A stretch of DNA of 43,650 nt from a virus (lineage: Duplodnaviria; Caudoviricetes): IMG/VR virus record IMGVR_UViG_3300048857_000042, positions 1 to 43,650 of that record. One strand, given 5' to 3'. The notes beneath the pieces were generated by a model. It was not told the origin of the DNA and searched no databases. It saw only the letters and a list, made by a program, of their open reading frames with translations. A program made the position numbers and the translations under genes. The first letter of the stretch is position 1, and each line of letters starts with the position of its first letter. Below, piece after piece: positions 2,090 through 43,650 of the stretch.

Positions 2090-2354
2090 TCTTGTATTCC
2101 CGAGCATGGGTGAATGTCAGGAAGTCCGCCGACGTGGGGGGCTTGATTGCCGCGCTCTTTGGGCGGCAGAAATAAGCAGGAGCCACCTGCCAAGAATTAG
2201 CAGGACGGAGTTCTCGTTTTGTCGGCATTCAGACAGACACAATGACGTGCTGTGATTAACAGGTGGCGACGCATCAGCGGGCAGAGGCTACCAGTGTAAG
2301 CCGGAAGTCTACTTGTAGGTTGGCTGGGGCTTTGGCTAGAACAATGAACCTAAG

Positions 2355-2430
2355 AAAAAGGCCACCCTTGCGAGCGGCCTGAAGTTTAGGGAGGAAACGC
2401 CCAAGAAGGGCAGCAACGCGGCGACGCCAA
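2355..2430 (-). ncRNA. suhB/alpha-r8 (MmgR-like) small RNA
   Basis: Minus strand reads GCCCTTCTTGGGC hairpin, TTTCCTCCCT anti-SD core, then AGGCCGCTCGCAAGGGTGGCCTTTTT terminator, the architecture of the alphaproteobacterial suhB/MmgR family; 5' end approximate. Confidence 0.75.
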
Positions 2431-2448: not shown

Positions 2449-2977
2449 AAATATAGTTCTTGCCTGAACAATCGGCAAGCTCAAACGTGCAGCATCGCTG
2501 CCCATTTTTGTTGCTGTTGTCATGCAGCGGGCGCATGACGGTGTGTTGCAGCGAGCCCCGGCCTTCTCTTAATACCACGGCAGGAACTTTCCCACCTCTT
2601 CAGCGGGCTTACGGGATTCGCACTTCATGCGGACTGCAAGCTCAAGCAGCCTCTGCCTTGATGGTTGGCGCGGTGGGAAGCGGCATCCAGCACGTGGGCT
2701 CCAGGCGCTTCGGGCGCTCGTTGACATGGCGCTGATCCCGAGACAGCCACCGGCCTGAGATACTGCTGAATTATCCGATCTCAACGCGCCCTACCCAGAG
2801 AAGGACATCATTCTCGTTCCTCGGTGCGGTCTCCATCGGCAGCCACTCGTCCATTCATCCTGTCCTGTAAGTCAGTCGTGAACGGTCAAGCTAGAGGGAT
2901 CGCATCCGTGGTAAAGACTTGACAGGACATTGCACCGTCCAGGGAGGGGGAGGTCCAGTTGGCTGGACCTCCCGAAT

Positions 2978-3292
2978 TCAACCCTTCCCACCCCGGATGA
3001 CCATCAGCTTGCGCATCATCGGCGGGAGGTCCGGGGGAGGGCGGCTGGTCGCTTCCAGGTCGGTGAAACGAGCCTTGCACCTGGGATCATATTGATTCGG
3101 AGGTCGCTCCCACGGCAGGGCCTTCCTCGGACAGTCGAAGGCAATCCTATCGAGAAGTTCGAATAGCTCGATGTCGGCCCCAAACTTCTCGACCAGTCGG
3201 GCCAACCGGTACTGGCCCCTGCGGTGTGGGCAATGGGGACAATCAACCCGGACGATCACCCATGGAAAATCTGACAGCCGCTCGACCATCAT
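2978..3292 (-). CDS. small Cys-rich (CxxC...C...C) hypothetical protein, probably SOS-regulated
   Basis: VRVDCPHCPHRRGQYRLARLVEKFGADI...DCP...RCKARF; LexA box about 25 nt upstream. Confidence 0.7.
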   Translation of the reverse strand: MMVERLSDFPWVIVRVDCPHCPHRRGQYRLARLVEKFGADIELFELLDRIAFDCPRKALPWERPPNQYDPRCKARFTDLEATSRPPPDLPPMMRKLMVIRGGKG

Positions 3293-3316
3293 GGCCCAAA
3301 CAAAATTGGGAAGTTA

Positions 3317-3331
3317 GAACGTATAGAGAAC
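3317..3331 (-). promoter_or_regulatory. alphaproteobacterial LexA (SOS) box
   Basis: GAAC-GTATAGA-GAAC = GTTC-N7-GTTC on the minus strand, upstream of 2978..3292. Confidence 0.75.
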
Positions 3332-3513
3332 GAATATGTTGAGATCAGGTTCAACCGGCTGGGATCATAGAACCCAACAACGAAGGCGCACGGTGAGAAA
3401 GATGGCCTCAACAGGACGTGGCGATATAGGGAGGTTTTTCGGGAAGATTTTCGGGAAGGATTTTTGCCCTAGCGCCAATCTTTTACTAAGGCTTTGATTC
3501 TGCGGGAGAAGAT

Positions 3514-3568
3514 TGGTCGGAGTGGCAGGATTTGAACCTGCGACCCCCACGTCCCGAACGGGGTGCGC
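3514..3568 (-). pseudogene. 3' half of tRNA-Pro(CGG); prophage att core
   Basis: Minus strand GCGCACCCCGTTCGGGACGTGGGGGTCGCAGGTTCAAATCCTGCCACTCCGACCA: anticodon loop CGG, T-arm and CCA end present, 5' acceptor/D-arm missing; lies about 110 nt downstream of the integrase. Confidence 0.85.
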
Positions 3569-3680
3569 CACGCGCAAACCCCTTATTTTGAGCCATTTTG
3601 CTTGATCGCCGTGGACCGTTTTCTACCCAGAAATACGCTGACTCGGTCCATAACCGGTCCACCGTTCGCAGATGTTCTGA

Positions 3681-19649: not shown

Positions 19650-20612
19650 ATGCACACTCTGCCGGTGCCGGTCGCGCCGGCGGACAACGCGCCGACACTC
19701 ACGGATGCACTGAGGTCGGCCGCGGAGTACGCCCAGTCGGAGAAGGCTGACGCCACCCGGCGGGCGTATCTCTCCGACTTCCGAGATTTCCACACCTGGT
19801 GTGAAGCGGTGCAGGCCTCGGCGCTTCCAGCGTCGATCGAGACGACGGCCGCCTACCTCGCCCAGCTGGCCGACAAGGGACTGAAGGCTTCGACCATCAA
19901 CCGCCGCGCAGCCGCCATCGGTTACGTGCACCGGGCGAAAGGGTTCGAGCCGCCAACGAATGCGGAGCCGGTCAAGGCCGTGCTCCGGGGGATCCGCTGC
20001 CGCTTAGGGGCAGCCGTGACTCGCAAAGATCCGGCAACGGCATCGGCCATCGCAAGAATGGTGCGGCGGATCCCCGATAACCTTCAGGGCAAGAGAGACA
20101 GGGCGCTCCTGCTCCTCGGCTTCGCCGCCGCGCTCCGCCGCTCCGAGCTGGTCGCGCTCGACGTGGTGGACTTGGAACGGATGCCGGAGGGCATTCTAGT
20201 CCACATCCGCAAGTCCAAGACGGATCAGGAGGGCGAGGGCCACCAGGTGGCAGTGCCGCGGGGCTCGAAGCTCAAGCCCGTTGAGGCGCTCGAGGACTGG
20301 CTCCGCTCCGCCGCCGTGGAAACCGGTCCGGTCTTCCGGTCAATCAAAAAAGGCGGAAAGGCAACCGCGCAGCGCCTGTCTGAGGGCTCAGTCGCCTCGA
20401 TTGTAAAGCGCTATGCCGAAGCGGCCGGGCTCGACCCTGACACCATGTCAGGCCACTCGCTGCGCGCCGGCTTCGTCACCTCCGCCCTTGAGGCCGGCGC
20501 TGACCTCTTGAAGGTCATGGACGTCACCCGCCACCGGGAAGTGAAAACCCTCAAGGCCTACGACCGCCGAGCGAAGGCCTTCAAGAACCATGCCGGCAAG
20601 GGATTTCTCTAG
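19650..20612 (+). CDS. Cre-like tyrosine recombinase/resolvase
   Basis: SAM-like N-domain (TRRAYLSDFRDF), RDRALLLLGFAAALRRSEL, KSKTDQ, SGHSLRAG, TRH...KAY. Confidence 0.92.
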   Translation: MHTLPVPVAPADNAPTLTDALRSAAEYAQSEKADATRRAYLSDFRDFHTWCEAVQASALPASIETTAAYLAQLADKGLKASTINRRAAAIGYVHRAKGFEPPTNAEPVKAVLRGIRCRLGAAVTRKDPATASAIARMVRRIPDNLQGKRDRALLLLGFAAALRRSELVALDVVDLERMPEGILVHIRKSKTDQEGEGHQVAVPRGSKLKPVEALEDWLRSAAVETGPVFRSIKKGGKATAQRLSEGSVASIVKRYAEAAGLDPDTMSGHSLRAGFVTSALEAGADLLKVMDVTRHREVKTLKAYDRRAKAFKNHAGKGFL

Positions 20613-22303: not shown

Positions 22304-23940
22304 GCGACGTCATCGCAGAGCTTGAGGCTCTGATCAAAGGTATGTCCGAGGAGGATAAGGCGGAGCTCGACAAGCTCATCCTGCCCGAGCTGAAGGCCAT
22401 CTGGCTGCCTAATCCCGGCCCGCAGACGTCGGCCCTCCACTCCGAGGCTGATATCCTGCTCTACGGCGGTGCCGCCGGCGGCGGTAAGTCGGACCTGCTC
22501 ATCGGCGCTGCCCTCACACAGCATGATCGGACGGTCCTGTTCCGCAGGCAGTTCACGGATCTTAAGGGCTTAGAGCAGCGCCTGTTCGAGATCGCCGGCC
22601 GCTCTGGCTGGAACGGCCAGGATCACGCCATGCGGCGGCCCGACGGCCGCGTGATCGAATTCGGCGCTCTTGAGAAGCCGGAATCGGAGAAGAGCTGGCA
22701 AGGACGCCCACACGATCTCATCGGCTTCGACGAGGGCGCGCAGCTCCCTGAAGCAAAGGTCCGGTTCGTGATGGGCTGGCTTCGCTCTGCCAAGGAGGGC
22801 CAGCGCTGCCGCGTGATCATCGCCTCGAACCCACCCATCGGTGCGGAGGGCGACTGGATGGTTGTCTGGTTCGCTCCATGGCTCGATGCCGCCTTCGACA
22901 ATCCGGCTGCACCTGGTGAGCTGCGCTGGGCTGTGATCGCGCCCGATGGCTCGACGGTCTGGGTCTCGGGCCCAGGCTATTACGTCGTCAGCGCCAATGA
23001 GAACGGCGCTCTTCAGTGCCGAGAGGCCACTCCTGAGGAGGTGGCAGACGCTGAGCTGGGCAAGGGCGATGCACTCAAGGCCATGTCGCGGACCTTCATC
23101 CCGGCCCGGCTCGACGACAACCCGTATCTGAGGACCACGAACTACCGCGCCAGCGTCATGGCGCTGCCTGAGCCTCTCCGGTCGAAGTTGCTCAAGGGCG
23201 ACTTCATGGCCGGCAAGGAGGACGCCGCCAACCAGGTCATCCCCACGGCCTGGATCGAAGCGGCCATGGAGCGTTGGAAGCAGCGGTCGAAGCCTACATG
23301 CCCGATGACGACGCTGGGCGTGGACGTGGCTCAAGGCGGCTCGGACAAGACGGTGCTCGCGCCGCTCTATGACACCTGGTTTGGTGAACTGGTCCGCAAG
23401 GATGGCGTCGACACCAAGAATGGTGCTGCCGTCGGCGCTCTGGTCATCGAGCACATGAGGGACAAGTGCCAGGTCAATATCGACCTGACCGGCGGCTGGG
23501 GCGGCGGTGCGCAGACCCACCTCGAAGACAATGTGCCGGGCATCAGGGTTGAGCCTGTCGTGTTCTCCGAGGGCTCACCAGGCGAGCGTACCCGGGAAAG
23601 CCAGCTCGAGTTCCTGAACAAGCGGGCAGAGCTCTGGTGGCGCTTCCGCGAGGCTCTCGACCCGGTTCATGGCGATGACATCGCGCTTCCGCCCGATCGG
23701 CGGCTCGCTGCGCAACTCGCCTCACCGACCTGGTGGTTGAAGTCGCGCTCGGGCGCGGCCGCCATCCAGATCGAACAGAAAGACGAAATTCGTAAGCGGC
23801 TCGGATCGTCCACCGACGACGCCGATGCCGTGATCATTGCTTGGTACCGCCGCCGGCAAGCGCTTTCGCGCATCGGTGGCAGCGAGCGACGGAGCCGACG
23901 CCGCGGCGCACGGGGCGGCAGTGGCTGGATGGGTGCCTGA
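22300..23940 (+). CDS. terminase large subunit
   Basis: Walker A YGGAAGGGKS, Walker B LIGFDEG, ASNPP, nuclease GVDVAQGGSD and STDDADA. Confidence 0.95.
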   Translation: MSDVIAELEALIKGMSEEDKAELDKLILPELKAIWLPNPGPQTSALHSEADILLYGGAAGGGKSDLLIGAALTQHDRTVLFRRQFTDLKGLEQRLFEIAGRSGWNGQDHAMRRPDGRVIEFGALEKPESEKSWQGRPHDLIGFDEGAQLPEAKVRFVMGWLRSAKEGQRCRVIIASNPPIGAEGDWMVVWFAPWLDAAFDNPAAPGELRWAVIAPDGSTVWVSGPGYYVVSANENGALQCREATPEEVADAELGKGDALKAMSRTFIPARLDDNPYLRTTNYRASVMALPEPLRSKLLKGDFMAGKEDAANQVIPTAWIEAAMERWKQRSKPTCPMTTLGVDVAQGGSDKTVLAPLYDTWFGELVRKDGVDTKNGAAVGALVIEHMRDKCQVNIDLTGGWGGGAQTHLEDNVPGIRVEPVVFSEGSPGERTRESQLEFLNKRAELWWRFREALDPVHGDDIALPPDRRLAAQLASPTWWLKSRSGAAAIQIEQKDEIRKRLGSSTDDADAVIIAWYRRRQALSRIGGSERRSRRRGARGGSGWMGA

Positions 23941-26051
23941 TGGCTGACGAAACCAAGAAATCTGTCGACGTCGACGGTACCGACAAGGACACCGACTTCC
24001 ACCGTGAGGCCGTGGCGAGGTACGACGCCGCTTGGCAGCGCGAGCAGGAGAACATCACGGCAGCCTATGAGGATCTCGAATTCCTCACCGGAGAGCAGTG
24101 GGACCTCATGATCAAGGCAGAGCGCGAGGCGGAGAACCGCCCGTGCATGACGATCAACGAGCTGCCCCAGTTCATCCGGCAGATCACGGGCGACATCCGC
24201 CAGATGCGGCCGGCCATTAAGTGCGTGGCGGTTGATGATCGCGGTGACCCGGACACTGCGAATGTGCTGGCTGGGATGATCCGCTACATCGAGAACCGCT
24301 CAAGGGCGTCATCGGTCTACTTCAAGGGCGCTGACAGCCAGGTGCAGGCCGGCATTGGACACTGGCGCGTGGTCACTGAGTACGCATCGGACACGACGTT
24401 CAACCAGGAAATCCGCATTGCTCGGATTGAGGATGGGGTGGGCGTTCTCTGGGATCCGGACGCGATCGAGCAGAGCCGCGAAGACGCGATGTACTGCTTC
24501 GTGCCGGTAGATATGAGCATCGGGGCGTTCGAGAAGAAGTACCCGCACGCCTCCACAGACAGCTTCGGCGACCAGCAGCATCGCGCCTATCAGGGCTGGT
24601 TCACGGATGATTCCGTGCGCGTGGCCGAATATTGGTACAAGGAGCCTATCAAGCGGAAGCTTCTGGTCATTGAGACACAGATCGATGACCTGACCGACGC
24701 GGATCCGGAGGAATTGGCTGAGGCTGAAGCTCTGGTAGCGAGCGCCTCAGCAGCCGGGCTCGATGCCCGGATCGAGGAGCGTGACGGATACCAAGTCATG
24801 TGGGCCGTGATCAGCGGCTCTGAGGTACTGGAGAAGCCCAAGAAGTGGCCCGGCCGGTTCATCCCGATCGTGCCAGTGATCGGTGAAGAGATCCAGGTTG
24901 GCCGCAAGCGCTTCCGGCATGGCGCCATCCGCTTTGCCCGCGATCCGCAGCGCCTGCTCAACTATTACATGTCTGCTGACACAGAGATCGTGGCGCTGCA
25001 GCCCAAATCGCCGTTCGTCGGGACGGAAAAGAACTTCGAGCGTTTCCAGGAGGAATGGGAGAACGCAAATAGCCAGAACCTGCCGTACCTAACCTATACG
25101 CCTGATCCGGCCAATGGCGGCATTCGGCCTGAGCGTGTCCAGCCGCCCGTCTCCTCGCAAGGAATCCGGGACGGCATTCAACTCGCATCCGAAAAGCTCA
25201 GAGCGACGACGGGCATTTACGACGCGTCACTCGGCCGCCAGAGCAACGAGACCAGCGGAAAGGCGATTGTGGCCCGTCAGCGTGAGGGCGATACCGGCAC
25301 CTACGTCTATGTCGAGAACTTCAGTCAGGCCATTGGCCATACAGGCAGCATCGTCGCCGACCTGATTCCACACATCTACGACACGGCGCGCACGGTCCGG
25401 ATTGTCGGCGAGGACGGCAAGGAGGAGCTGGTCAAGATCAACCAGCCCGTCGGCGTGGCTCTCGATGGTATTGCGGCGATTCAGCATGACGTCACGGTTG
25501 GAGCCTATGACGTCGTGATGTCCATGGGCCCGTCTTACAATACCAGGCGCGAAGAGGCCCGGGACGGCATGCAGGCTTTCCTCCAATCGAGCCCTGAGGT
25601 TGCCGGTGGCTTTATCGATCTTGTTGCCGATGCTCAGGACTGGCCGAACAAGGACAAGATCCGCGAGCGTGCCGAGCTGCTCCTCCCACCCCAGGTTCGG
25701 GCCGCCATAGCCCAGGAGAAGGGTGAGCCGCTTCCGCCGTCGCCTCAGGAGCAGGCCCACGCCCAGGCCGAGCAGCAGCAACAGGAGCTCGTAGGCCAGG
25801 AGCATCAGATGAAGCTGGCCGAGCTTCAGGTGAAGGGTAAAGAGCTACAGCTCAAGGAGGCCGAGCTCGAGGCGAAACTCGCCGCGCTCGCAATGCCGAC
25901 CCAGCCAGCCGCCGATCCGCGCGTTGAGCAGCTCGCCGCCACTGTTCAGGAAATGGGCCAGGTGCTGGGTGCGATCGTCCAAGCTTTACAGCCCGAGCAA
26001 CCTGCTCCGATGCCTGAACAAGCTTCATCGATAGCGCAGGCACAAATGTGA
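23940..26051 (+). CDS. P22-like portal protein
   Basis: EDLEFLTGEQW...NRPCMTINEL...GRFIPIVPVIGE...ARDPQRLLNY...SNETSGKAIVARQ; long Q/E-rich barrel; ATG 23940 overlaps the TerL stop. Confidence 0.92.
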   Translation: MADETKKSVDVDGTDKDTDFHREAVARYDAAWQREQENITAAYEDLEFLTGEQWDLMIKAEREAENRPCMTINELPQFIRQITGDIRQMRPAIKCVAVDDRGDPDTANVLAGMIRYIENRSRASSVYFKGADSQVQAGIGHWRVVTEYASDTTFNQEIRIARIEDGVGVLWDPDAIEQSREDAMYCFVPVDMSIGAFEKKYPHASTDSFGDQQHRAYQGWFTDDSVRVAEYWYKEPIKRKLLVIETQIDDLTDADPEELAEAEALVASASAAGLDARIEERDGYQVMWAVISGSEVLEKPKKWPGRFIPIVPVIGEEIQVGRKRFRHGAIRFARDPQRLLNYYMSADTEIVALQPKSPFVGTEKNFERFQEEWENANSQNLPYLTYTPDPANGGIRPERVQPPVSSQGIRDGIQLASEKLRATTGIYDASLGRQSNETSGKAIVARQREGDTGTYVYVENFSQAIGHTGSIVADLIPHIYDTARTVRIVGEDGKEELVKINQPVGVALDGIAAIQHDVTVGAYDVVMSMGPSYNTRREEARDGMQAFLQSSPEVAGGFIDLVADAQDWPNKDKIRERAELLLPPQVRAAIAQEKGEPLPPSPQEQAHAQAEQQQQELVGQEHQMKLAELQVKGKELQLKEAELEAKLAALAMPTQPAADPRVEQLAATVQEMGQVLGAIVQALQPEQPAPMPEQASSIAQAQM

Positions 26052-26052
26052 A

Positions 26053-26448
26053 GCGCCCCAGCTGAAGACCTTGTCAATAACATCAGCCAGGGCGCAGACG
26101 GAGTGGGGCAACACTCCGCATTTGTTCGGGCTGATACGCAACACGCCCGGTGAGATGATACTGATCGAACTCGGTAAACATTCAGTGTGTTGGGAACGCC
26201 CCAGCCGAGAGAGATTCGCTTTAACTCTCAGCCAGGGCGCCGTGACTTCCGTAGGGGCAACCACTTGAGCCACGCGGTAAATGCTAAGCGATCTCTTTTG
26301 ATCCGCAATTGAGCAAGCGAGGTGGGTCTTTGGTCCTGAAACTCGAACTCTCTGCTTTCAGGGGTAGCCCATAAAACTGAAACGCCCCGGCTGAGGGCTG
26401 TCTGAAACCTCAACCAGGGCGTCTAAGCGGTGCCGGTTGCAACACCGC
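26053..26448 (-). ncRNA. putative modular structured ncRNA / hairpin array (unknown family)
   Basis: Three CGCCCUGG(C/U)UGA-loop-UC(A/G)GC(C/U)GGGGCG hairpins (26382-26422, 26196-26240, 26053-26095), each preceded by a GUUGC hairpin; all non-Watson-Crick pairs in the conserved stems are G-U on the minus strand; own promoter. Confidence 0.7.
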
Positions 26449-26453
26449 GCAAC

Positions 26454-26481
26454 ATTTTACTCTCACTCATTTCAACGTCAA
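26454..26481 (-). promoter_or_regulatory. sigma70-type promoter driving the hairpin array
   Basis: TTGACG (26481-26476) - 16 nt - TAAAAT (26459-26454); predicted start near 26448 coincides with the first hairpin. Confidence 0.75.
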
Positions 26482-26482
26482 C

Positions 26483-26510
26483 GCCGCCCACAGAGGCGGC
26501 ATTTTCATTT
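26483..26510 (+). terminator. terminator-like hairpin
   Basis: GCCGCC-CACAGA-GGCGGC then ATTTTCATTT. Confidence 0.6.
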
Positions 26511-26559
26511 CCGAGCTTCACGTAGGCCGGTGCACGAGGTGCTGGCCGCGATGATGAGC

Positions 26560-26584
26560 AGCCGTCCAGAGGGGCGGCTTTTTT
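26560..26584 (+). terminator. intrinsic terminator upstream of the scaffold gene
   Basis: AGCCGTCC-AGAG-GGGCGGCT then TTTTT. Confidence 0.7.
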
Positions 26585-26597
26585 GTTGAGAAAACCC

Positions 26598-27455
26598 ATG
26601 AACGTGGATGACAACCAGGACAACGGGCTGGCGGACGAGGATCTGCTGGCCGGCGGCGAACAGTCTGAGGCTGACACCGAGGAGAACAACACCTCCGAGG
26701 ACGATGCCAATACAGAGACTGAGGACGAGGATGGCGCCGATGAAGCCGATTCCGATGCCTCGGATGACGAAAGCGACGAAGACGATCAGCCGAAGCGCAA
26801 GCGCCGCACCGGCAGTGAGCGTCTGAGGCGCCGTATCGAGGCTCTTGAGGCCGAAAACCAGTCCCTGCGCAGTCGCCCCCAGGTTGATGGCGCGGACTTG
26901 GAGAAGGCCGTTCTGGCTGAGATCGGCGAGCCCCCGAAGGAGTCGGACTATCCCGACTATCTCGCCTTCGAGCGGGCGATGATCGCCTATGAGGCTGACA
27001 AACGGGCGGTCACCCGTGAGGTCAAGCGCACCATGGCAAGCCAAGCGGCCAGTGACGCTGCCAGGCGGGCCGAAGTGTTCGAGGCCTACGATGATCGTCT
27101 TGAGCAAGCCGAGAAGGCTCTCCCGGGCCTGAAGGCGACCATTGCGAAGGCAGACGTTCAGATCCGTCAGCACGTGGTCGGTCTCATCGTCGAGAGCGAG
27201 AAAGGTCCTCTGATCGCTCATCATCTGGCGAAGAACCCCAGCAAAGCCGCCGAACTCAATCGCATGCCGCCTCTCGCGGCGGCGCGCGAAATCGGCCGTC
27301 TGGAGGCTCGCCTGTCTCTGCCCAAACCCAAAACCACAACCTCGGCCCCTCCGCCCATCACCCCTCCGCGGGGCTCGGCGGCTCCTGCCAAAGATCCTTC
27401 GAAGATGTCCAACGCCGAATACCGGGCGTGGCGTCAGAAGACCGGTAGGAAGTAA
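26598..27455 (+). CDS. capsid scaffolding protein
   Basis: Highly acidic N-terminus, coiled coils, GPLIAHHLAKNP...AAREIGRLEARL, C-terminal MSNAEYRAWR; between portal and coat. Confidence 0.85.
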   Translation: MNVDDNQDNGLADEDLLAGGEQSEADTEENNTSEDDANTETEDEDGADEADSDASDDESDEDDQPKRKRRTGSERLRRRIEALEAENQSLRSRPQVDGADLEKAVLAEIGEPPKESDYPDYLAFERAMIAYEADKRAVTREVKRTMASQAASDAARRAEVFEAYDDRLEQAEKALPGLKATIAKADVQIRQHVVGLIVESEKGPLIAHHLAKNPSKAAELNRMPPLAAAREIGRLEARLSLPKPKTTTSAPPPITPPRGSAAPAKDPSKMSNAEYRAWRQKTGRK

Positions 27456-41078: not shown

Positions 41079-41801
41079 TCAAGTTGCCGGCTTCTTAGAA
41101 CTGCGGCGAGCATTGCGTGCGCGTTCGACCTGCTCTCGCTCCTCTAAGATCCCAGATCTAATGAAGCTAATCACCGATCTTGCTTCAGCCATTGCCGATT
41201 TCCGTTCAGAGGGATAGTCAGTAGTTATCTCCCGAAAGATCAACGAAACCTCGCCACCGAGGGTGAGCGTTTTATCGCCCAGGTCCCAGAGCGTTCTCAA
41301 GACGACTGGTGGGATTGAATCCGCCTCCGTACTGATGTGGGCAAGAACCTTGTTTCTAAGTGTTCTCAGTTTTGCTGCGCCATCCCCATTTAGACGCTCG
41401 TACTCCGCGACAAAGCTCTCAATTCGAGTCACCATGTCCTTGCGGGTAGCCTCTGCTCTGCTGGGGCCGTAGAAACCTACCGCACGTTCAATTAGTTGCC
41501 GCCGAATATCGTTGTCATGCAGGGCCTGCCCGAACGTTCCCAGCGAGACATCTGTTGGATAATGTGGACGAACAATTAGAGCATGCACTCGAATTGCGAT
41601 CAGGTGAATCTGATCGAACATCAAGGTACTGATTGCTCCAGTACCTCTACCTGACAAGTTCTCTGAACGAAGTTCATCGTTGAAGCCGTGAAAGACCCCA
41701 AGCGAGTGGGCCAAGTTGCGCATAGGTGTGTGGAGCGCGGTCGCCAACTTCTCTAGGTTGGATAAGGTGATCTTTGCCGTTGGAGCGCGCCCTTTGCTCA
41801 T
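41079..41801 (-). CDS. HEPN-domain protein (AbiU2-like)
   Basis: Helical protein with LRTLRNKVLAH (RNx4H); lower GC; ATG 41801 chosen. Confidence 0.7.
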   Translation of the reverse strand: MSKGRAPTAKITLSNLEKLATALHTPMRNLAHSLGVFHGFNDELRSENLSGRGTGAISTLMFDQIHLIAIRVHALIVRPHYPTDVSLGTFGQALHDNDIRRQLIERAVGFYGPSRAEATRKDMVTRIESFVAEYERLNGDGAAKLRTLRNKVLAHISTEADSIPPVVLRTLWDLGDKTLTLGGEVSLIFREITTDYPSERKSAMAEARSVISFIRSGILEEREQVERARNARRSSKKPAT

Positions 41802-41929
41802 GAAGAACCTTCTTGAAGAATAACTCAACAGAACATTCCGCTACGTGAGATTAGCGGGATGTTAAAAGATCCGATGACTGCAAGATTCAGCAATCAACCA
41901 CTGTCATCAAAAGAGTAACAGTCTACCCT

Positions 41930-43006
41930 TTAGGTGACCGACACCAATGTTGGTTTGCCTTGAGCACGAGACGGAGGTTGGATTTCACCCGCAAGGCCGA
42001 AGATCAGGTTCTCAACTTCGTCAGGAGGGAGATTGAGATCTGCTGCTATATGATCTCTGGTGACTTTGTCCTTCCAAAGTTCTGTAAGAACCATATTCCA
42101 GATGCTCGACCGCTCAGGAGGCAAGCCATCAGGCTCGGCATTCCTGCCGTATTCGCGGTTGATCTGAATTACAAAGGTCCGGTAGTTCCAGTCTGAGATG
42201 CGTCCAAGTTTGTGTAGACGGTAAGCCAAGGCCGAGACCGAAACACCCCAGCGCTTTTTAGCCTTAACCAGTTGATCCAGGTTGTAAACAACTGGAACGT
42301 GAGCGACCAAGTCGTCCTTCGGCATAAGGAAGCTGCTGGCAAACAGCTGGGCCTCCATCTCTGCCTGACGGCCTTGCTGAGGGCCGCCATGACGATGAAG
42401 AACTAAGTGACCCAGTTCGTGGGCGGCATCAAACCGACTCCGTTCAGCCGTCTTGAATGTGTTCAAGAAGATGTACGGTTCGCCATTGCGCCAACAGGAG
42501 AAGGCGTCGACGTTCTTCGTATCCTCCGCTAGCGAGAACACTCTGACCCCTTTGGTCTCTAGCAGCTTAATCATGTGACCGATGGGCCGCTCACCGATAC
42601 TCCAGTACTGCCTAAGTGCACGTGCCGCTGCTGCTGGATCTCGCTCATGGCTCAAGTCCAAGATGTCTGGCTCAGGCAAGTTAAAGCGATCTTGAACCCA
42701 ATCTGCCATTTCGAAGGCAAGTGATCCCGCCGCGAGGGCAGCATCACGCTCACGAGCAGTCATCAGTGTCAGGCTGCGAAAACTGGCAGCTGTCGAGTCT
42801 ACAGTATCGACTTCGTCCCGGAAAAAGAACTCACGCGGAAATCCCAGCGCCTGAATGAGCGCATCCTCAGTTGCAGGATCTGCGACTTGTGACCCGTTCG
42901 TTACCCGAGAAAGAGTGACCGGCGAAATGCCGGCCCTCTCTGCTAAAATTTTTGCTGAATACCGGCGCCGCTTCCGGGCCAGTTCAAGTCTGCTGATATT
43001 GAACAT
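41930..43006 (-). CDS. XRE-HTH + ImmA/IrrE (DUF955) zinc metallopeptidase; RosmerTA antitoxin-like
   Basis: N-terminal HTH (RLELARKRRRYSAKILAERAGISPVTLSR); RSRFDAAHELGHLVLH (HExxH), EMEAQLFASSFLMP, WGVSVSAL. Confidence 0.9.
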   Translation of the reverse strand: MFNISRLELARKRRRYSAKILAERAGISPVTLSRVTNGSQVADPATEDALIQALGFPREFFFRDEVDTVDSTAASFRSLTLMTARERDAALAAGSLAFEMADWVQDRFNLPEPDILDLSHERDPAAAARALRQYWSIGERPIGHMIKLLETKGVRVFSLAEDTKNVDAFSCWRNGEPYIFLNTFKTAERSRFDAAHELGHLVLHRHGGPQQGRQAEMEAQLFASSFLMPKDDLVAHVPVVYNLDQLVKAKKRWGVSVSALAYRLHKLGRISDWNYRTFVIQINREYGRNAEPDGLPPERSSIWNMVLTELWKDKVTRDHIAADLNLPPDEVENLIFGLAGEIQPPSRAQGKPTLVSVT

Positions 43007-43008
43007 CT

Positions 43009-43650
43009 CTATTTACGACTGATGATTGGTTCGAATTCCGCCGGCGGCGTATCCTCACCCCCTATGCCCATCAGCTTCGTCCATTCACCTTCACGGACGA
43101 TGAAGATTCTCTCTGCGAATGCTTCAAAATTACGCCCTGCGATTCCGGTGGGGCGCGAAAGCTCGGCCCGCACGTCCTCTCCATCAACTGATACACAGAA
43201 GAACCAGGTGCCGAACTTCAGATCTGACAGCGCATCTTGTGTGAGCGATACAAGCTCAGTGTCTGGGAACAGGGTGCCCTGACCAGCGCTGATCAAGCGA
43301 TCGGCTCCGGAGCCCTTGCCGGAAACTGCCTGAGGCGTATGGAAGAGGTTAGATGCTTGATCAACGCTCTGGTAGACGACGAGGAGGTTCCGATCGGGGT
43401 GTCTGACCGACTCGACGTTGTCCTCGCGGAATGACATCCAGCCTTTAGAGCGAAAGACCTGACGAAGGCGGCGGGTGCCATAGATGTAGGCAAACAGTCC
43501 CTCGGCAGAGAGAGGGTCATCCTCTACGGCGTCGGCACGTGCAGCAACCACGGTACGAACCACCTCGACGAGCTCCTCACGTGAGACACCGAAATCCTGC
43601 AGACGAGCATCAACTTCCCACTCTTCCCGATAAACCTTAGCCTGAGCCAT
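43009..43650 (-). CDS. partner of the ImmA/IrrE gene; RosmerTA toxin-like
   Basis: 213 aa ORF 2 nt upstream of the peptidase gene; AYIYGTRRLR...GW...NVE...KGSG...QGTLF...WFFCV...RAELSRP pattern as recalled for such pairs. Confidence 0.6.
   Translation of the reverse strand: MAQAKVYREEWEVDARLQDFGVSREELVEVVRTVVAARADAVEDDPLSAEGLFAYIYGTRRLRQVFRSKGWMSFREDNVESVRHPDRNLLVVYQSVDQASNLFHTPQAVSGKGSGADRLISAGQGTLFPDTELVSLTQDALSDLKFGTWFFCVSVDGEDVRAELSRPTGIAGRNFEAFAERIFIVREGEWTKLMGIGGEDTPPAEFEPIISRK

Follow-up and report, generated by a model that had tools for sequence, protein, structure and literature searches.

Small structured antisense RNAs with two exposed pairing regions are known from phages, as exemplified by C4 of P1 and P7 and CI of P4 (RF01695). 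Related architectures are known from other systems. Lambdoid prophages of EHEC carry AgvB and AsxR, short homologous anti-sRNAs that occupy moron positions antisense to the late transcript and act on host riboregulation (PMC4104026). In Caulobacter, SisA-D (alpha-r8/suhB/MmgR) are sibling sRNAs with independent promoters and a pyrimidine-rich seed, to which a G/A-rich stem-loop of the sponge CrfA is complementary (PMC12559287). Cuckoo/CcsR/alpha-r14 and AbcR/alpha-r15 are two-hairpin RNAs of about 70-80 nt with seeds in their loops, arranged in tandem clusters and present in varying copy number on alphaproteobacterial chromosomes and plasmids (PMC8034643, PMC3346310), while the type VIII toxin-antitoxin system SdsR/RyeA consists of complementary small RNAs (PMC8610362). 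The hairpin units analysed here belong to an uncatalogued, modular, multi-copy family resembling sibling sRNAs, which phages carry in clusters.

The window, i.e. the whole stretch of 43,650 nt that was analysed, is a P22-like provirus with genes for integrase, RecT, repressor, DnaB, terminase, portal, scaffold and coat. Its left flank shares 100% (positions 1-714) and 99% (2514-3571) identity with G018, which belongs to the same genus as Microvirga sp. VF16, and judging by this identity the prophage host is a Microvirga. Microvirga is a soil bacterium, and the genus includes nodulating and soil species. The host flank also contains an sRNA of the suhB/MmgR family (2344-2418, minus strand; Rfam E 5e-12), similar stretches of which are multi-copy in Microvirga. 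A second tyrosine recombinase/integrase gene (19650-20612, plus strand) lies within the prophage directly upstream of the packaging genes, and the right end (41079-43650, minus strand) combines a 213-aa ORF of no known kind with an HTH-IrrE/ImmA peptidase and an AbiU2-type HEPN protein, a three-gene block that looks like defence or regulatory cargo. The gap between the portal and scaffold genes holds three hairpin units on the minus strand, with the following features:

26583-27455, plus strand: head scaffolding gene (flank; phrog_8865), probable start ATG at 26598
26560-26579, plus strand: second terminator-like hairpin on the late-operon strand, upstream of the scaffold gene, conserved in the close relative L148
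26483-26500, plus strand: terminator-like hairpin on the late-operon strand, immediately beyond the cluster promoter, conserved in L148
26476-26481, minus strand: -35 box TTGACG of unit 1, at the same position in homologues
26454-26459, minus strand: -10 box TAAAAT of unit 1, 5 nt upstream of hairpin 1
26427-26448, minus strand: hairpin 1 of unit 1, loop type GUUGCAACC, a type found in 14 other units
26382-26422, minus strand: long hairpin of unit 1 with GACAGC in its loop, the loop being identical in 4 other units with a different hairpin 1
26373-26382, minus strand: U-rich terminator-like tail 3' of unit 1
26309-26372, minus strand: linker containing a block that is also conserved ahead of unit 2 homologues, a putative regulatory region
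26303-26308, minus strand: -35 box TTGCGG of unit 2, aligning with the conserved -35 of the chromosomal homologue
26281-26286, minus strand: -10 box TAGCAT of unit 2, 7 nt upstream of hairpin 1
26242-26273, minus strand: hairpin 1 of unit 2, homologous to the chromosomal sibling
26249-26260, minus strand: seed of unit 2, UUGCCCCUACGG, complementary to hairpin 1 of the T-family RNAs
26196-26240, minus strand: long hairpin of unit 2, loop type AAAGCGAA, the loop being unlike that of the chromosomal homologue
26158-26186, minus strand: conserved upstream block of unit 3, with TGTTTACC at 26180-26173 and CAGTAT at 26163-26158
26127-26150, minus strand: additional 5' hairpin of unit 3, its loop conserved
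26098-26119, minus strand: hairpin 1 of unit 3, loop GUUGCCCC
26053-26095, minus strand: long hairpin of unit 3, its end 2 nt from the portal stop
23841-26051, plus strand: P22-type portal gene (flank; phrog_156, E 8e-151), stop codon 26049-26051

Inspection of this tract recovered all three long hairpins that the initial annotation had reported on the minus strand, together with its observation that the stems deviate from Watson-Crick pairing by G-U pairs only: the 12 core pairs of the three copies comprise 10+2, 9+3 and 10+2 Watson-Crick and G-U pairs with 0 mismatches. The claim that the tract reaches the portal stop codon holds to within the 2 nt separating the last hairpin from 26049-26051. 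Small hairpins were indeed present ahead of each long one; that of unit 2 is better drawn as 26273-26242, and unit 3 carries an additional upstream hairpin (26150-26127) that was missing from the earlier description. A unit spans about 75 nt and consists of a short seed hairpin followed by a long hairpin. Folding of the tract gave a z of -5.4 for the minus and -3.0 for the plus strand, with 0/100 shuffles folding as well on either strand. The proposed minus-strand promoter TTGACG-16-TAAAAT (26481-26454) is the sole sigma-70-like site within 25800-26800 (shuffles 0.2 +/- 0.5). Likewise, the tract contains no credible ORF, as annotated, since the two ORFs crossing it had no Pfam match and no conserved ORF lies over the units in the 67 clusters described below. 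On the opposite strand, the two terminator-like hairpins in the portal-scaffold gap are predicted features past which late transcription would need antitermination.

Scanning with the long-hairpin pattern revealed its presence in other phage contigs, Microvirga plasmids and Microvirga loci. The scan of genomes returned 107 genome matches including Microvirga loci, most of the remainder being chance palindromes, which were removed before model building. The covariance model R1 was built from an alignment of 62 distinct units, in which both partners have changed at 17 of 23 pairs (10.8 +/- 1.2 in shuffles, 0/500 reaching the observed value; slid controls 8-12). In hairpin 1, which had served in unit picking only as a strand tie-break, all 7 of 7 pairs do so, the long stem being the weaker witness because it was selected for pairing. 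Both stems accordingly covary across the family, and the scaffold is conserved in sequence and not in pairing alone. Covariation in both stems and the lack of a conserved ORF agree with the earlier reading of a structured non-coding RNA on the minus strand with a constant scaffold. In the window the unit model gave exactly three strong matches, followed by opposite-strand shadows and then by E 0.29.

R1 matches occurred in 49 of 76 Microvirga genomes (0-36 per genome, counts into which opposite-strand shadows and, for G023, IS-associated false positives also enter); the 76-genome tallies take in one unpublished genome (G041), on which no claim rests. Where genomes are complete, the majority of matches fall outside the largest contig (G001 29/31; G017 18/21). 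Among 150 other genomes of the bacterial family, weak matches were obtained in 5 only; these were fetched and, judged by eye, rejected as IS-associated or unrelated hairpins. After removal of shadows and two duplicate loci, our census comprised 112 units in 67 clusters, namely 41 single units, 10 clusters of two, 13 of three and 3 of four. Neither a protein family generally accompanying the clusters nor a small ORF conserved on the strand opposite the units was found in these 67 clusters, and a Sib/Ibs-like type I antitoxin was rejected because no conserved small ORF lies on the opposite strand or in divergent orientation. When the window and 46 related loci were scanned with Rfam, no unit was matched, in keeping with the initial annotation, and matches in an annotated phage collection were short, covering 7% of the query or less. 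Literature searches on small RNAs in Microvirga and its prophages turned up neither sRNA work on the genus nor a description of the family, unnamed members in supplementary sRNA tables being possible.

Several small neighbours of the clusters were recorded in passing, among them type-specific small ORFs (L066:2942-3205, L005, L026, L028 and L112:17-208). An ORF of about 87 aa is convergent on 13 clusters, and a short hydrophobic peptide ORF lies upstream of a few clusters, without being general. An upstream ORF common to 6 of the 67 clusters, and thus not general either, is absent from the window and presumably DUF1127-like, judging by its motif, a DUF1127 gene (CIN1) being the neighbour of Cuckoo/CcsR/alpha-r14 RNAs; the one example tested had no Pfam match. 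A further multi-copy hairpin motif, GGCACGGATGGA(C/T)TGCC, gave 20 matches in 5 genomes (control 1; L584-L599, L026, L028), often lies 130-250 nt downstream of family units and is complementary over 7 nt to one loop-2 type.

According to the initial annotation, a single promoter drives a multi-unit transcript that may be processed into separate guides. To examine the upstream regions we applied the pattern TTG-N3, 15-17 nt, TA, ending 3-9 nt upstream of hairpin 1. Among 108 distinct upstream regions, 31 were scored as carrying the conserved block of the unit 3 type, a class that window unit 2 entered through a chance word, and the other 77 were tested for a promoter. A sigma-70-type promoter at fixed distance was present in 38 of the 77 units, compared to 0-1 at seven shifted positions and to shuffles that averaged 1.5 and never exceeded 6. 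Of these 38 units, 19 are cluster-internal, and 15 internal units have the conserved upstream block. An out-of-sample set of metagenome contigs chosen by the long hairpin alone, at least one of which repeats DNA already seen, yielded promoters in 15 of 23 testable units and 0 at seven shifts, the conserved upstream block being found in 25/50. In the window, unit 2 has its own promoter, TTGCGG-16-TAGCAT (26308-26281), and the conserved upstream block of unit 3 is probably a regulated promoter. As cluster units mostly have an upstream signal of their own and 41 of 67 loci hold a single unit, the single-promoter model found no support; processing of an array into guides fared no better, given that loop types recur and that members of the family are spread through Microvirga genomes rather than being phage-specific. 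U tails (at least 5 U within 8 nt 3' of the stem) follow 55 of the 112 units, while units 1, 2 and 3 of the window have 5, 3 and 2 U, respectively, within those 8 nt. Because the tails of units 2 and 3 are weak, read-through from the unit 1 promoter into these units would be possible.

These promoters also bear on the notion of a DNA repeat (REP/MITE-like) or of stacked terminators without an RNA product. Units are indeed dispersed, multi-copy and palindromic, and some weak model matches are IS-associated hairpins; however, the promoters are dedicated and at fixed distance, the G-U pairs fall on one strand, loop sequence is conserved at an orthologous locus, a genome holds at most a few dozen copies (0-36 matches), and the unit has no terminal inverted repeat. 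We consider a DNA repeat or stacked terminators highly improbable, and a REP/MITE repeat was rejected on copy number and promoters.

Analysis of the loop repertoire revealed that loop sequences, described initially as unrelated, are unrelated among the three window units, whereas each of them recurs elsewhere and is thus not unique. GACAG(C/U) is found in loop 2 of 40 of the 112 units, the hairpin 1 type of unit 1 combines with various loop 2 types in its 14 other units, and some motifs are found in either loop. The loops fit a small set of reusable seeds, shuffled between units, rather than acquired spacers. The view that the cluster is not a CRISPR array and has no effector gene beside it was borne out: loops recur, units have their own promoters, no effector was found in the window and no protein is common to the 67 clusters, for which reasons a CRISPR/TIGR-type guide array was rejected. 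The stems might instead present loop motifs to host or phage RNA-binding proteins or nucleases as decoys without a base-pairing target. Such decoys would account for short motifs such as GACAGC being kept while the surrounding loop bases vary, for a scaffold conserved in sequence as well as in pairing, and for most loops having no pairing target found. Yet several seeds are C-rich and anti-Shine-Dalgarno-like, no protein gene travels with the units, and the unit 2 seed has an exactly complementary RNA family with compensatory changes, as detailed below, so that we regard protein decoys as decidedly unlikely.

Ten phage contigs, including the window, carried clusters. In 9 of 10 (the window and 8 others) the cluster is antisense to structural genes, the flank of the tenth (L072) being left without a call. 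The carriers include unrelated phages, both P22-like and long-tailed, and in the latter the genes flanking the cluster are those for the head-tail connector and head completion. Morons are usually inserted antisense. Unit and loop content varies among related phages: the close relative L148 has kept units 2 and 3 and carries a unit 1 with different loops and promoter, and L008, with a portal 84% identical, has no unit within the fetched stretch.

This placement invites an explanation by phage immunity or superinfection exclusion, in which antisense RNAs of the C4/CI or guide type, possibly from one precursor, act against own or rival phage genes. Its appeal lies in the clusters being antisense in structural operons wherever resolved, in P22-like and long-tailed phages alike, in the swapping of units between close relatives, and in a chromosomal copy that is likewise antisense between terminase and portal genes. 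The search of the loops against phage genomes including this prophage, which had been proposed initially, gave a different picture, as loop complements in six phage genomes stayed near the reversed control (104 vs 87; 51 vs 44). An 11-nt complement of the unit 2 loop in the HTH-IrrE gene (42679-42689) was dismissed as within chance for 87 kb. The RF01695 model gave no match at E<=10 in G000, exact matching in partial phage genomes found no two cognate target sites of the C4/CI type (a/b), and the window cluster, unlike C4/CI, lies outside the immunity/antirepressor region. Furthermore, most copies reside on host plasmids, judging by their position off the largest contig, the units have their own promoters, and the antisense site is the usual one for morons anyway. 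Taken together, we judge an immunity function quite improbable.

A syntenic chromosomal locus was found to contain two divergent members of the family, which lie antisense to and between genes for terminase and portal (Pfam on L198), in what we take to be a gene transfer agent cluster. It matches 40 of 76 Microvirga genomes, 38 of them strongly, and was not found in the 301 genomes searched outside the genus. The second chromosomal unit aligns with window unit 2 over the -35, the -10, hairpin 1 and the long stem, with a differing loop 2. Both promoter boxes of the chromosomal locus are conserved while the spacer between them varies freely. An alignment of 27 syntenic orthologues with window unit 2 (28 sequences) shows pairing in 97.5% of its cells and both-side changes in 3 pairs (1/500 shuffles). 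On this alignment, window unit 2 and its promoter are homologous to a conserved gene of the chromosome. The cluster units were likely picked up from the host, a direction suggested by the wide syntenic conservation of the chromosomal copy.

The first chromosomal sibling (L222:1540-1760) has a GTCAT-N6-GTCAC direct repeat over its -35 region, which is presumably Pho-box-like, and further conserved hairpins lie 3' of it. A complementarity of 7 nt connects loop 2 of the second sibling with the first sibling's linker (L222:~1628-1634 and ~1933-1939); it is conserved in most orthologues, and the sole variant (L248) is not compensatory. Among sequencing runs with small shares of L222 we found 13, of which 7 are labelled RNA; they were found with that same stretch, two look like the same data, and their contigs show no strand. 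All six RNA runs inspected had a contig within ~1595-1755, covering the first sibling and the downstream hairpins, and none over the unit 2 homologue, whereas a probable DNA run had contigs over both siblings. The RNA contigs suggest a product of about 180 nt for the first sibling; one of them extends into the predicted -10 box, and for all these reasons run contigs were not used as evidence.

A search for CCGTAGGGGCAA, which is complementary to the unit 2 seed, gave 420 occurrences spread over 49 of 76 Microvirga genomes (about 85 for the reversed control) and near-background numbers in 301 genomes of the order. The sequence is part of two additional types of unannotated, predicted RNA, termed S and T, without Rfam match. 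In the S gene the seed is exposed in a loop and followed by a U-tailed terminator; in the T gene the seed complement forms hairpin 1, followed by its own terminator. Model R2 located T in 58 of 76 Microvirga genomes, and at 36 of the 58 T loci read an S gene is divergent from T at a distance of 127-263 nt. Comparison of the T and S 12-mers revealed 20 mismatches, compared to 26.0 +/- 1.9 with partners shuffled (P 0.008, a value inflated by related genomes, the covariation resting on few lineages). Five positions change on both sides while keeping the pairing and 17 single changes give G-U, against 3 double and 17 single changes that break a pair, two loci being one base out of register in the scoring. 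Calculated net binding of unit 2 to T averages -10.4 kcal/mol versus -3.3 +/- 2.7 for shuffled T, with values of 0.0 for unit 1 and -1.1 kcal/mol for unit 3. Thus, at the level of DNA comparison, the unit 2 seed is complementary over 12 nt to the T RNAs, and T changes in step with its divergent S. As the T and S 12-mers form a direct repeat at the DNA level, their similarity could also be maintained by gene conversion or by a DNA-binding protein. No T gene is present in the window, and a complementary partner for seeds other than that of unit 2 was not found in 1.26 Mb of partly overlapping loci.

S/T pairs were seen at L314-L343, L468-L521 and L217:2838-4430 and also in one genome outside the 76 (L470). 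At L324 and L327 the promoter interval is lost and S and T share one 12-mer. Hairpin 1 of T has 9 contiguous bases in common with the last 16S rRNA hairpin (L344:2136); mimicry of the 16S 3' helix is conceivable, and chance may also explain the match. The unit 2 seed likewise matches the 16S 3' hairpin over 9 nt, a match to which no weight was given.

The S/T arrangement raises the question of an RNA-only toxin-antitoxin system, in which T (or S) would be harmful and restrained by its divergent partner, phage clusters then serving as antitoxin-like panels against RNA or mRNA toxins of the host. The pairs are divergent, multi-copy and often on accessory DNA, their complementarity is kept, and phages carry the S-type seed while the window is without T; moreover, type VIII pairs consist of two complementary small RNAs (PMC8610362). 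On the other hand, 22 of the 58 T loci are without a divergent partner by our scoring rule (several being promoter-interval deletions), T has no conserved ORF, other seeds have no partner found, and one unit has kept a stable, syntenic position on the chromosome in 38 of 76 genomes. We therefore think toxin-antitoxin function unlikely.

Further possible targets were sought. No shared address motif was seen among 463 candidate start regions, and matches of C-rich seeds to start regions were discarded because they are built in by the Shine-Dalgarno filter. Complementarity to rRNA in one fetched operon was not enriched (loop 1: 103 vs 70, 74 and 114; loop 2: 106 vs 114, 101 and 90). As a source of host mRNA candidates, the pattern AGGGGCAA-N1-7-ATG gave 106 matches in 5 genomes, compared to 14 for a reversed control that ignores Shine-Dalgarno composition. 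Two starts recur among the 27 of 106 matches examined, which we take to be those of the glutamate synthase small subunit and of a receiver-domain protein, both being candidates. In these searches no target in phage, rRNA or mRNA sequence rose above its controls. With respect to a possible chaperone, 74 of 76 Microvirga genomes carry hfq, and at least 2 copies were counted in 23 of 75 genomes and in 15 of the 16 with at least 14 unit matches. Given genome size, the partial r between hfq copy number and unit number is 0.14, and a co-expansion of hfq with the units was rejected as largely a genome-size effect. Up to 8 hfq copies occur in Microvirga genomes, several of them on plasmids, with paralogues scoring below the core copy.

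On the structure, strand, promoters, modularity, unit 2 homology and 12-nt complementarity described above, all of them read from sequence, we consider it probable, if well short of certain, that the window units are separately transcribed base-pairing sRNAs or anti-sRNAs, likely of the Hfq type, carried as a moron. Transcription, Hfq use, targets and a benefit to the phage are what we infer, along the following lines. Sigma-70-type or regulated promoters would start each RNA at hairpin 1, and the long hairpin would act as a stability or terminator-like scaffold that also displays a second seed. Together with host Hfq, the exposed loop seeds, although many seeds lie partly inside stems, could base-pair with ribosome-binding sites rich in purines or with further small RNAs. 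Like the S RNAs, unit 2 would pair loop-to-loop with T, which might be a sponge or a target of the seed. The phage may thereby add new seed combinations to the riboregulation of the lysogen, as the EHEC prophage anti-sRNAs do. A bolder idea, which we hold to be rather doubtful, is a modular RNA code of Microvirga with two interchangeable seed loops per scaffold, drawn from a small repertoire and each with its own sponge or toxic partner, from which phages assemble panels that rewrite or disarm the RNA-RNA network of the host. The family offers a natural experiment in the re-programming and horizontal movement of sRNA specificity and a testable instance of phage editing of host riboregulation, and its seed/partner pair comes with natural compensatory variants (L325, L318/L328).

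The Microvirga units share some features with the described systems and differ in others. As in AgvB/AsxR, a conserved scaffold is combined with a variable pairing part, antisense at a moron site. In contrast to AgvB/AsxR, the Microvirga units have two seed loops with recurring, shuffled loop types (no sequence homology being claimed), and most of the family resides on chromosomes and plasmids of the host, with homology to a host gene in the case of at least one phage unit. The relation of T to the unit 2 seed resembles that of CrfA to SisA-D (PMC12559287). Unlike SisA-D, the units lack the alpha-r8 10-mer core, the RF00519 match of the window lying elsewhere (2344-2418); there are up to dozens of siblings with many seeds, and the partner family is multi-copy and divergent from the seed carriers. 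With alpha-r14 and alpha-r15 the units share the two-hairpin design, clustering, variable copy number and seeds in loops. However, the CCUCCUCCC loop of alpha-r14 was not seen in the 112 units, Rfam gave no ar14 or ar15 match, and siblings within a Microvirga cluster carry different loops, mostly have their own promoters and are phage-borne. In contrast to the SdsR/RyeA pair, the predicted T and S are divergent and non-overlapping and share only about 12 nt. Whereas known alphaproteobacterial sibling-sRNA families have few copies and one common seed, the Microvirga family reaches dozens of matches per genome with two swappable seed loops, has been taken up by unrelated phages at a consistent position, and has a complementary partner family.
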